Shown one piece after another: positions 39,269 to 40,306 of a DNA stretch of 64,000 nucleotides. The first letter of the stretch is position 1; each line of letters opens with the position of its first letter. Source of the stretch: Escherichia phage Pu-Krd-SF1; sequence record PQ249395, one strand, 5' to 3'. The notes under the pieces were generated by a model. The model ran no database searches, was not told where the DNA came from, and saw only the letters and a list, made by a program, of their open reading frames with translations. The position numbers and the translations under genes are program-made.

Positions 39269-39455
39269 CATTAATGATGAATTCATAGCAAATATTGATT
39301 ATACCGAAGAAGATTCTAGATATGTTGGAATAATTTATATTACATCAAAAACAGCGCAAGGTGTTGTTTGCATGGCTGAATTTGATGAATACTTTTTAGA
39401 TTATGATGATATGATAGAATGGTCTAAAAGATACATTAAAAGGAATCTTTTGTGA
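39192..39455 (+). CDS. hypothetical protein (start uncertain)
   Basis: ORF overlaps the previous one; true start probably further 3'. Confidence 0.35.
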   Translation: MTHLNHYKIWLYLVLRMHTVKFSTFDINDEFIANIDYTEEDSRYVGIIYITSKTAQGVVCMAEFDEYFLDYDDMIEWSKRYIKRNLL

Positions 39456-40306
39456 AGAATTTTAAACTTGATATTAATGACGAATTTTTAATAAAGGAAT
39501 TAGTTGAAAAATTAGCGTTGAGTGAAGAAGACGCCAAGTCTTACATTAATTTTATTTCTATGAATTCAACTGTTAAAACTCCAGGTAAAACGGAAGCACA
39601 CCACGTGCTTCCTAAATCAATATTTCCTGAATATTTAAAATCTACATGGAATTTAGTTAATTTAAGTCATTTTAATCATTTTAAAGCGCACTTCTTATTA
39701 GCAAAAGGTAAAAATGGAAAAATGCTAAATGCTTTAAATAGAATGATGTCAGGAAAAACATATAAAAATTTATCTTTAGCCGAAGTTGATTTAATAGCTG
39801 CTGAATATAGTTTTATAAAACAAGATGTAAGTGACACAATATCAAAAAGGCTTCAACAGTATTATTCAAATCCGCAAAATAGAAATGCTGCTAGAGAAAG
39901 GGCATTAAAATATTTTTCAGTAGCAAAAAATAGGAAAGATAACAAAGAAAGATTAAATAATTTTAAAACAAAACAAAAAATTTCAATGGCTTCAAGGGAA
40001 TGGTTTAATAACGAAGAAAATAAAATTAAACACCAAAAGGCTGTTCGTGCTGCTTTATCAAAACCTGAATATAAAATAGCTATATCAAATTCAGTAGCTG
40101 CTAGTTGGAAAAATCCGGAGATTAGAAAAGCTCATATAGCATCTCGACGAAAAGGCTATCATTGGGATAATAAAGATAAATTGTATGAATTGTGGATATC
40201 ATATAATCGTCCTAAACATGTGATGTTTAGGAAAATGTTAGTTAAGAATGGATATCCAATAGAGGCTTCATTGCAGGCTTTAGTTAAAGAATTTTCTTCA
40301 TTGTGA
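39452..40306 (+). CDS. HNH (mob-type) homing endonuclease
   Basis: TEAHHVLPK HNH core; C-terminal LYELWISYNRPKHVMFRK shared with two paralogs; GTG start. Confidence 0.7.
   Translation: MKNFKLDINDEFLIKELVEKLALSEEDAKSYINFISMNSTVKTPGKTEAHHVLPKSIFPEYLKSTWNLVNLSHFNHFKAHFLLAKGKNGKMLNALNRMMSGKTYKNLSLAEVDLIAAEYSFIKQDVSDTISKRLQQYYSNPQNRNAARERALKYFSVAKNRKDNKERLNNFKTKQKISMASREWFNNEENKIKHQKAVRAALSKPEYKIAISNSVAASWKNPEIRKAHIASRRKGYHWDNKDKLYELWISYNRPKHVMFRKMLVKNGYPIEASLQALVKEFSSL

Follow-up and report, generated by a model that had tools for sequence, protein, structure and literature searches.

T-even phages are a model for intron-less homing, and among their HNH mob genes only MobE and MobA have experimental data: MobE has an internal terminator, and both enzymes are reported to nick one strand and to be passed on with high frequency (PMC2988022, PMC2790892). 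MobD has never been characterised biochemically (PMC2988022, Table 1), and the HNH genes of T2, T6, and RB51 had been counted by 2010 (PMC2993671, Table 5). Here we describe three mob genes in a 64,000-nucleotide (nt) stretch of Escherichia phage Pu-Krd-SF1 (PQ249395), hereafter called the window: an intact gene just upstream of gene 46 (the 46-site gene), an intact gene between 56 and soc (the 56-soc gene), and a mobD pseudogene. We found that these genes are homologous and retain the HNH catalytic residues, that they sit between precise junctions, and that they are patchily distributed among related phages and conserved more than the sequences that flank them. We consider it likely that the three belong to a MobD-like branch of free-standing HNH (His-Me finger) homing endonuclease genes and that each site was entered independently.

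The 46-site gene (positions 39452 to 40306, plus strand) encodes 284 amino acids (aa) between a GTG start and a TGA stop, and the 56-soc gene (57616 to 58452, plus strand) encodes 278 aa from an ATG start. The third copy (17901 to 18680, plus strand) is orthologous to T4 mobD and matches the T4 protein at 257 of 259 residues. A check of open reading frames (ORFs) found all three where the original prediction had placed them. In BLASTP comparisons, the 46-site protein was 30% identical both to the 56-soc protein (290 aa, E = 5e-22) and to the window's mobD product (243 aa, E = 9e-18), and the 56-soc protein was 25% identical to the latter (259 aa, E = 8e-9). Full-length alignments to MobD gave E values of 2e-17 for the 46-site protein and 5e-9 for the 56-soc protein; homology to T4 Mob proteins therefore extends beyond the HNH motif. 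Each of the three matched phrog_655, annotated as "homing endonuclease," over its full length (E = 8e-45 for the 46-site protein, 5e-33 for the 56-soc protein, and 3e-55 for mobD). An initial k-mer-limited homologue search returned only 6 proteins, and a profile search was needed to recover the family, which comprises 1760 proteins at E < 1e-6, many of them with Pfam HNH or NUMOD3 domains.

Residues E48, H50, H51, N67, H76, and H80 (46-site numbering) are invariant in a 45-member alignment of the family. The spacing H50-H51...N67...H76...H80 fits the colicin-type HNH motif, H-H...N...H...H. In an AlphaFold2 model of the 46-site protein (predicted local distance difference test score, pLDDT, of 91.3), beta strands at residues 47 to 51 and 68 to 72 and a helix at residues 73 to 84 form a beta-beta-alpha core (pLDDT above 90); the presence of the H-H...N...H...H residues on this core indicates HNH/His-Me finger membership. 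Beyond residue 84, the model continues as a long helical region and ends in a three-helix C-terminal unit. The family profile also matched HNH domains in the PDB, namely those of McrA, a group II intron maturase, and Cas8f-HNH (6ghc, 6me0, and 8ydb). The phrog_655 matches, the invariant residues, and the matches to HNH structures together bear out the prediction that all three are Mob-type HNH homing endonucleases. Each has a beta-beta-alpha-metal nuclease at its N terminus, then a helical linker that contains NUMOD3-like repeats, and at its C terminus a DNA-binding module of three helices.

Several observations weigh against this assignment. The Pfam HNH model (PF01844) misses the 46-site and 56-soc proteins even at an E value of 0.1, and MobD itself, at 18.2 bits, scores below the gathering cutoff of 21.4. 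A scan of NCBIfam gave no match for the intact Mob proteins, whole-model fold searches returned only helical-repeat noise, and the GGxDD loop of T4 Mob proteins is replaced by FPEY...W in the 46-site and 56-soc proteins. Enzymatic activity, target sites, and homing would moreover be attributed to these two enzymes by analogy with characterised relatives. As to the domain searches, Pfam and NCBIfam are insensitive to this divergent branch of Mob proteins, whose HNH motif is itself present, and PHROGs is the informative resource.

We found significant similarity among the three proteins outside the HNH core as well. The middle regions are of low complexity and rich in K and E, so chance or lysine-rich composition might account for such similarity. 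However, when the nuclease region was removed, the C-terminal parts still scored 43.9 bits (46-site/56-soc), 58.2 bits (46-site/mobD), and 34.7 bits (56-soc/mobD), whereas the maxima from 200 shuffles were 21 to 24 bits, and the W..ELW..KP..GYP block aligns without gaps; an origin by chance or composition is thus refuted, and its probability is negligible. The motifs first proposed as shared were only partly accurate. The core TEAHH(I/V)LPK is present in two of the three proteins, but mobD reads TEKHHIIPS, and the C-terminal segment given as LYELWI(S/K)(Y/L)NRPK is approximate, the actual strings being LYELWISYNRPK, LYKLWIKLNRPK, and, in the 56-soc protein, LRELWINNNKPK.

A C-terminal module, W..L.ELW...KP....GYP......F, is common to the three Mob proteins, T4 MobD, and the GIY-YIG enzymes SegF and SegA. 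The module of the 56-soc protein (encoded at 58291 to 58437) matches residues 166 to 214 of T4 SegA with an E value of 2.6e-6. One DNA-binding module is thus joined to HNH domains in MobD and the 46-site and 56-soc proteins and to GIY-YIG domains in SegF and SegA, in agreement with the description of SegF as a "hybrid" in a review (PMC2988022). T4 MobB, MobC, and a relative from Escherichia phage KK4 (P0003) carry another C-terminal module; such differences are ordinary domain shuffling within the family.

Their common domain architecture and C-terminal module, along with a DIN motif after the start in two of the three, would also be expected of true paralogues produced by duplication and transposition within this phage lineage. 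Against this, mutual identity is only 25 to 30%, and each gene has same-site orthologues in other phages (85 to 100% DNA identity, most at least 97%), including phages in which the other two are missing. Only mobD is present in T4, T6 carries the 46-site gene, and Yersinia phage fPS-2 has the 56-soc gene together with an empty 46 site. These same-site orthologues argue for independent acquisition rather than duplication within this genome, and we regard duplication as very improbable. The term "paralogous" in the original prediction holds loosely, for family members at this level of identity, but not for genes that were acquired separately. As is typical of free-standing mob genes, all three are intergenic, lie in the orientation of their neighbours (plus strand), and contain no intron, and the 46-site and 56-soc genes overlap the upstream gene. 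A promoter scan for strong promoters belonging to the 46-site and 56-soc genes found none.

At the 56-soc site, the T4 map and a junction alignment confirmed that T4 carries the GIY-YIG gene segF at the position where the window has an HNH gene, as the original prediction had stated, and that the swap between segF and mob is nucleotide precise. The slot is bounded by the gene 56 stop codon and the soc late promoter TATAAATA. It is occupied by soc.2 and soc.1 in 240 records, by segF in 50, and by the window's mob gene in 29; this last set spans Tequatrovirus, Jiaodavirus, and Moonvirus. The mob ATG, whose ORF shares 11 nt with the end of gene 56, falls within an endonuclease-associated gene 56 3' end (57585 to 57626, plus strand; the ATG is at 57616) that forms a left border in common with the T4 segF cassette. 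These 42 nt are identical in the window, in T4 (segF), and in fPS-2, and near-identical in the Jiaodavirus and Moonvirus carriers; SA20RB, which has no endonuclease gene, differs at 12 positions in this region, and SF2-1 at slightly more. The rest of the window's gene 56 is T2-like, with 78% identity to T4 and 92 to 93% to phages without an endonuclease gene. Because the ATG is common to both cassettes, the segF and mob proteins both begin with MDI. The right border (58448 to 58455, plus strand), which overlaps the endonuclease stop codon, is the soc late promoter and is the same for the segF, mob, and soc.2/soc.1 cassettes; the stop codons of both segF and mob lie inside TATAAATA. Two such motifs lie less than 40 nt apart at the end of the 56-soc gene (58416 and 58448); the window holds nine exact copies, all on the plus strand, a total not above chance.

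As a corollary of the tentative start-capture proposal set out below, the MDI start in common and the remodelled gene 56 end suggest that segF may have taken the place of an earlier Mob gene in situ. A derivation of SegF from the 56-soc Mob protein by swapping of the nuclease domain is unsupported beyond the shared border: the C terminus of SegF scored 19.6 bits in that comparison, versus 30.4 to 30.8 bits to MobD and the 46-site protein. We also rejected a GIY-YIG (Seg) identity for the 56-soc occupant itself, which had no GIY-YIG match in Pfam or NCBIfam and whose N terminus aligns with the Mob HNH core. In fPS-2, a second annotated homing endonuclease gene lies directly upstream of gene 56 (positions 1606 to 2256 of the fPS-2 sequence used); some carriers of the 56-soc gene thus have gene 56 flanked on both sides by endonuclease genes.

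Approximately 30 nt into the 56-soc endonuclease ORF lies a hairpin with a 10-bp stem and a 5-nt loop, ending in UUUU (57647 to 57671, plus strand; RNA fold of −20.7 kcal/mol, z score of −3.2), which the fPS-2 annotation calls a terminator. A comparable hairpin occupies the corresponding place in T4 segF (in both cassettes, 20 to 45 nt into the ORF), and a terminator in segF has been reported by a review (PMC2988022). A simple terminator scan of the window did not call the 57647 to 57671 hairpin, which has four U residues only. It probably serves as a weak terminator or attenuator downstream of gene 56.

In the Klebsiella Jiaodavirus JIPh_Kp122, identity is 96.6% for the 56-soc gene but 76.4% and 65.4% for the flanking gene 56 and soc, and in Moonvirus KM16 the 56-soc gene is 91.8% identical; across the Jiaodavirus and Moonvirus carriers, gene 56 is 76 to 81% and soc 62 to 65% identical. 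Because the gene is 96.6% identical while its flanks are only 65 to 76% identical, the alignments give clear evidence that it moved recently between genera into the same slot.

The mobD copy shows a similar disparity, with 99.6% identity to T4 in the gene versus 87.6 to 93.4% in the flanks: 3 of 780 nt differ within it (0.4%), compared with 87 of 701 and 21 of 320 nt to either side (6.6 to 12.4%). The 46-site and 56-soc genes are sporadic among relatives, as expected of genes that spread horizontally. The mobD copy is interrupted by an amber codon, as originally reported: it forms one frame with a single in-frame TAG at 18126 to 18128, where a G-to-A change at 18127 has turned codon 76 from TGG (Trp76) into TAG. 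The TGG is kept in T4, G2540-3, F25, and CM8, and the TAG is confined to Pu-Krd-SF isolates, among which SF3 has an extra frameshift. Since the gene is far closer to T4 than its flanks are and carries a single amber codon, it is a recently spread element, killed not long ago by a nonsense mutation and just starting to decay.

The 46-site gene was described as lying between genes 47 and 46, which is broadly correct; more exactly, it lies between 46.1 and 46, where T4 has nothing. Its GTG start overlaps the 46.1 stop codon in the sequence GTGA, and its opening codons, GTG AAG AAT TTT AAA CTT, are gene 46's own first six. This captured native start, GTGAAGAATTTTAAACTT (39452 to 39469, plus strand), is identical to the first 18 nt of T4 gene 46; RB14 and phiD1, both of which lack the insert, match it at 17 of 18 nt (CTA for CTT at codon 6). 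At the 3' end of the cassette, a diverged duplicate of the start, ATGAAATCATTTAAACTT (40322 to 40339, plus strand), is identical to the captured copy at 14 of 18 positions. The duplicate (ATG AAA TCA TTT AAA CTT), which is also found in RB51, gives gene 46 the start MKSFKL in place of VKNFKL. The HNH-core coding region of the 46-site gene contains a 9-bp GC-rich inverted repeat, GGAAGCAC...GTGCTTCC (39592 to 39612), which was scored as a terminator-like site on the minus strand.

The first part of gene 46 is also distinctive in phages with the insert. We identified 69 to 70 carriers of the 46-site gene (70 of 517 related phage records), T6 among them; a T2 record was seen among the carriers in the junction search only. 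The junction of 46.1 and 46 is uninterrupted in 433 of 516 related records, and occupancy is 70 of ∼503. Empty sites have two alleles: a majority "class A," as in RB14 and phiD1, and a T4-type "class B." Class A differs from T4 and all carriers by 12 and 7 mismatches per 50 nt across the first 100 nt of gene 46, compared with ∼1 per 50 nt outside it, and this first 100 nt is only 80 to 90% identical to the window in 350 records. Clustering of mismatches relative to RB14 and phiD1 thus defines a gene 46 5' patch linked to the endonuclease gene (40340 to 40421, plus strand), the class B allele. The patch is present in 69 of 69 carriers, and T4 has it without the gene. A search for carriers of class A with a synthetic junction (cassette end joined to class A) gave a best full-length match of 92.8%; since nothing exceeded this, no carrier has class A.

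These alleles are most simply explained if the patch moves along with the endonuclease gene, being either flanking DNA that was co-converted or an immune form of the target, which makes it a candidate target-site/immunity region. A point on the other side is that characterised free-standing endonucleases of T4 usually cut hundreds of base pairs from their own genes (PMC2988022); a divergent patch beside the insertion thus does not prove that a target site lies there and could be a hitch-hiked donor flank. T4 may have received the patch without the gene, or may have lost the gene by recombination in the 9-bp repeat TTTAAACTT. Such recombination would regenerate the T4 sequence exactly, and in T4 gene 46 the native GTG start is joined to the endonuclease-linked patch exactly at TTTAAACTT.

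The same start-capture design is seen, independently, at a second gene. Between nrdD and nrdG, Escherichia phage KK4 (OQ944321.1) encodes a protein related to the 46-site one (positions 3001 to 3840 of the KK4 sequence used); its gene opens with 13 nrdG codons, of whose 39 nt 37 are identical to the canonical nrdG 5' end, compared with 6 captured codons at gene 46. The KK4 nrdG itself then begins with a diverged duplicate, MNYDRIYPCCFVN (3830 to 3875). The first ∼7 codons of T4 mobC are likewise the same as those of nrdG. Tentatively, and giving the idea somewhat less than even weight, we propose that this Mob branch invades by capturing, in frame, the opening codons of an essential gene downstream, to which it brings a diverged replacement 5' end. 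T4 would then be scarred, either because it once carried the gene or because it was left with just a partial conversion tract; it would now be immune to the enzyme of T2 and T6, and the ∼350 class A phages would be natural targets.

How such genes might spread can be outlined by analogy with MobE, MobA, SegF, and SegG (PMC2988022, PMC2330249). In a mixed infection, the enzyme would nick or cut the gene-free allele of a related phage, and recombination repair of the T4 type would then copy the gene and a short flank, with its adjacent markers, into the cut genome. The linkage of the 46-site gene to the gene 46 patch in 69 of 69 carriers would lend such homing indirect support. The cassettes have no strong promoters of their own and rely on local signals. 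At gene 46, the insert takes the host's GTG start, translationally coupled to 46.1, and provides gene 46 with a diverged replacement; at 56-soc, the gene starts at an ATG made inside the remodelled end of gene 56, carries a probable attenuating hairpin, and ends in the soc late promoter. Expression would be held low by the coupled GTG start in the first case and by scanning and re-initiation 11 nt ahead of the stop codon of gene 56, along with the early hairpin, in the second. The mobD copy represents the decay phase of the homing cycle.

These borrowed signals raise another explanation, namely, that the two intact genes are catalytically dead or domesticated and are kept because host genes depend on signals in the cassettes (the only start and ribosome-binding site of gene 46, the attenuator that follows gene 56, and the surroundings of the soc promoter). 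The gene 46 start does lie inside the cassette, so that imprecise deletion would be harmful; Pfam HNH misses both proteins; and host promoters embedded in endonuclease genes have been noted to shield those genes from deletion (PMC2988022). However, none of the HNH catalytic residues varies, dozens of phages have intact ORFs, and near-identity across genera despite divergent flanks requires recent transfer. In addition, a route to precise deletion exists via the TTTAAACTT repeat, and T4 looks like its product. Domestication therefore seems unlikely.

The window is that of a Tequatrovirus (T4-like phage). It is 99.3 to 99.4% identical over its whole length to Escherichia phage Pu-Krd-SF5 (PQ759885.1, reverse strand), and the three mob sites are 99.9 to 100% identical. 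The T4 gene order is kept: 1/57A, the tRNA cluster, mobD, nrdC, 49, nrdD, nrdG, 55, alpha-gt, 47, 46, 45, 43, 42, uvsX, 41, 61, 56, and soc, to dda. Domain, profile, and BLAST matches confirm the earlier count of seven homing endonuclease loci: the three mob genes, an HNH gene next to the tRNAs, and three GIY-YIG-type genes. The same interval of T4 also holds seven (segB, mobD, I-TevII, mobC, mobB, segA, and segF), and the two phages have only segB and mobD in common. Remnants of T4 mobB, segA, I-TevII, mobA, mobE, and dam were sought across the window, and none was found.

The tRNA-adjacent HNH gene (2278 to 2889, plus strand) is not of the Mob family; it matches phrog_14736 (E = 4e-123), with a marginal Pfam HNH score of 18.2 bits, and lies directly upstream of tRNA-Leu, at the place where T4 has tRNA-Gln. 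Inside the tRNA cluster is the segB orthologue (3539 to 4204, plus strand), a GIY-YIG gene whose product is 94.6% identical to T4 SegB (Pfam GIY-YIG, E = 1e-5). The window's tRNA order (2896 to 4284) is Leu, Gly, Pro, Ser, Thr, Met, Tyr, segB, Arg; that of T4 is Gln, Leu, Gly, Pro, Ser, Thr, Ile, segB, Arg. In the window, tRNA-Tyr adjoins segB, and SegB-driven amplification in T6 was linked in 2026 to escape from the tRNA-Tyr-cleaving Septu defence (PMC13096335).

Between 49 and nrdD, a site that is empty in T4, the window has a GIY-YIG-type gene (28616 to 29437, plus strand; NUMOD3 and TIGR01453) whose product is 39.8% identical to T4 SegG at its N terminus (E = 2e-22). Another GIY-YIG gene occupies the nrdD-nrdG interval (31238 to 32068, plus strand; NUMOD3 and an I-TevI DNA-binding domain); its product is ∼50% identical to the N termini of SegA and SegB. 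T4 carries the HNH gene mobC in this slot, so that the family swap is the reverse of that at 56-soc. The window's nrdD is a 605-aa ORF without an intron (29428 to 31245), flanked on both sides by these GIY-YIG-type genes (28616 to 32068). The dam methyltransferase gene is missing from the gene 61/gene 56 interval (57047 to 57068), where T4 has ∼900 bp, and tblastn of T4 Dam against the whole window gave no match. A matching record has a small opposite-strand ORF just upstream of 57047 to 57068, overlapping the end of gene 61.

The biology described here is already known and ordinary for T-even phages, and many GenBank and RefSeq records already label the window's mob genes as homing or HNH endonucleases, with T2 and T6 among the annotated phages; the anatomy of the junctions is a modest addition within a well-understood class. 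Three details may be new: capture of host start codons together with a diverged duplicate, the border that segF and mob have in common, and the gene 46 patch in T4. Intact genes in T2 and T6 (46 site) and in three genera (56-soc) provide natural donor/recipient pairs for studying gene conversion by HNH nickases, and the gene 46 patch supplies a concrete candidate for a target and immunity site. The precise borders show selfish genes reusing, and even rebuilding, host translation starts, terminators, and promoters, and the three mob genes illustrate how such genes are slotted in and swapped at fixed genome positions. Endonuclease loci account for much of the local mosaicism among therapeutic Tequatrovirus isolates, which is not to be taken for functional differences.

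Compared with known systems, the 46-site and 56-soc proteins have the full architecture of T4 MobD, including the C-terminal ELW..KP..GYP module. They differ from MobD, which sits at the nrdC.11-mobD.1 site, in location, in having FPEY...W for the GGxDD loop, and in being only 25 to 30% identical; the window's own MobD orthologue differs in its amber at codon 76. T4 MobE and MobA resemble the window genes as free-standing, promoter-less genes that overlap the upstream gene and encode an N-terminal HNH domain, but they have other C-terminal regions and occupy other sites. Swaps of endonuclease families at one site have been documented for segH in place of mobC and hef in place of mobE, in the work of Sandegren et al. 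(2005) as cited in PMC2988022. The window offers a parallel in its GIY-YIG gene at the T4 mobC site, where one intergenic slot likewise holds different families; at 56-soc, in contrast, HNH replaces GIY-YIG, and the swap comes with a shared, remodelled left border. The closest counterpart of the 56-soc gene is T4 segF, which encodes a GIY-YIG/Mob hybrid that targets gene 56. The two fill one slot whose borders are identical to the nucleotide, begin at a common ATG within the same remodelled last 42 nt of gene 56, have a hairpin early in the ORF, stop in TATAAATA, and encode a Mob-type C-terminal module, but the catalytic domain of the 56-soc protein is HNH rather than GIY-YIG, and the bodies of the two cassettes are unrelated.

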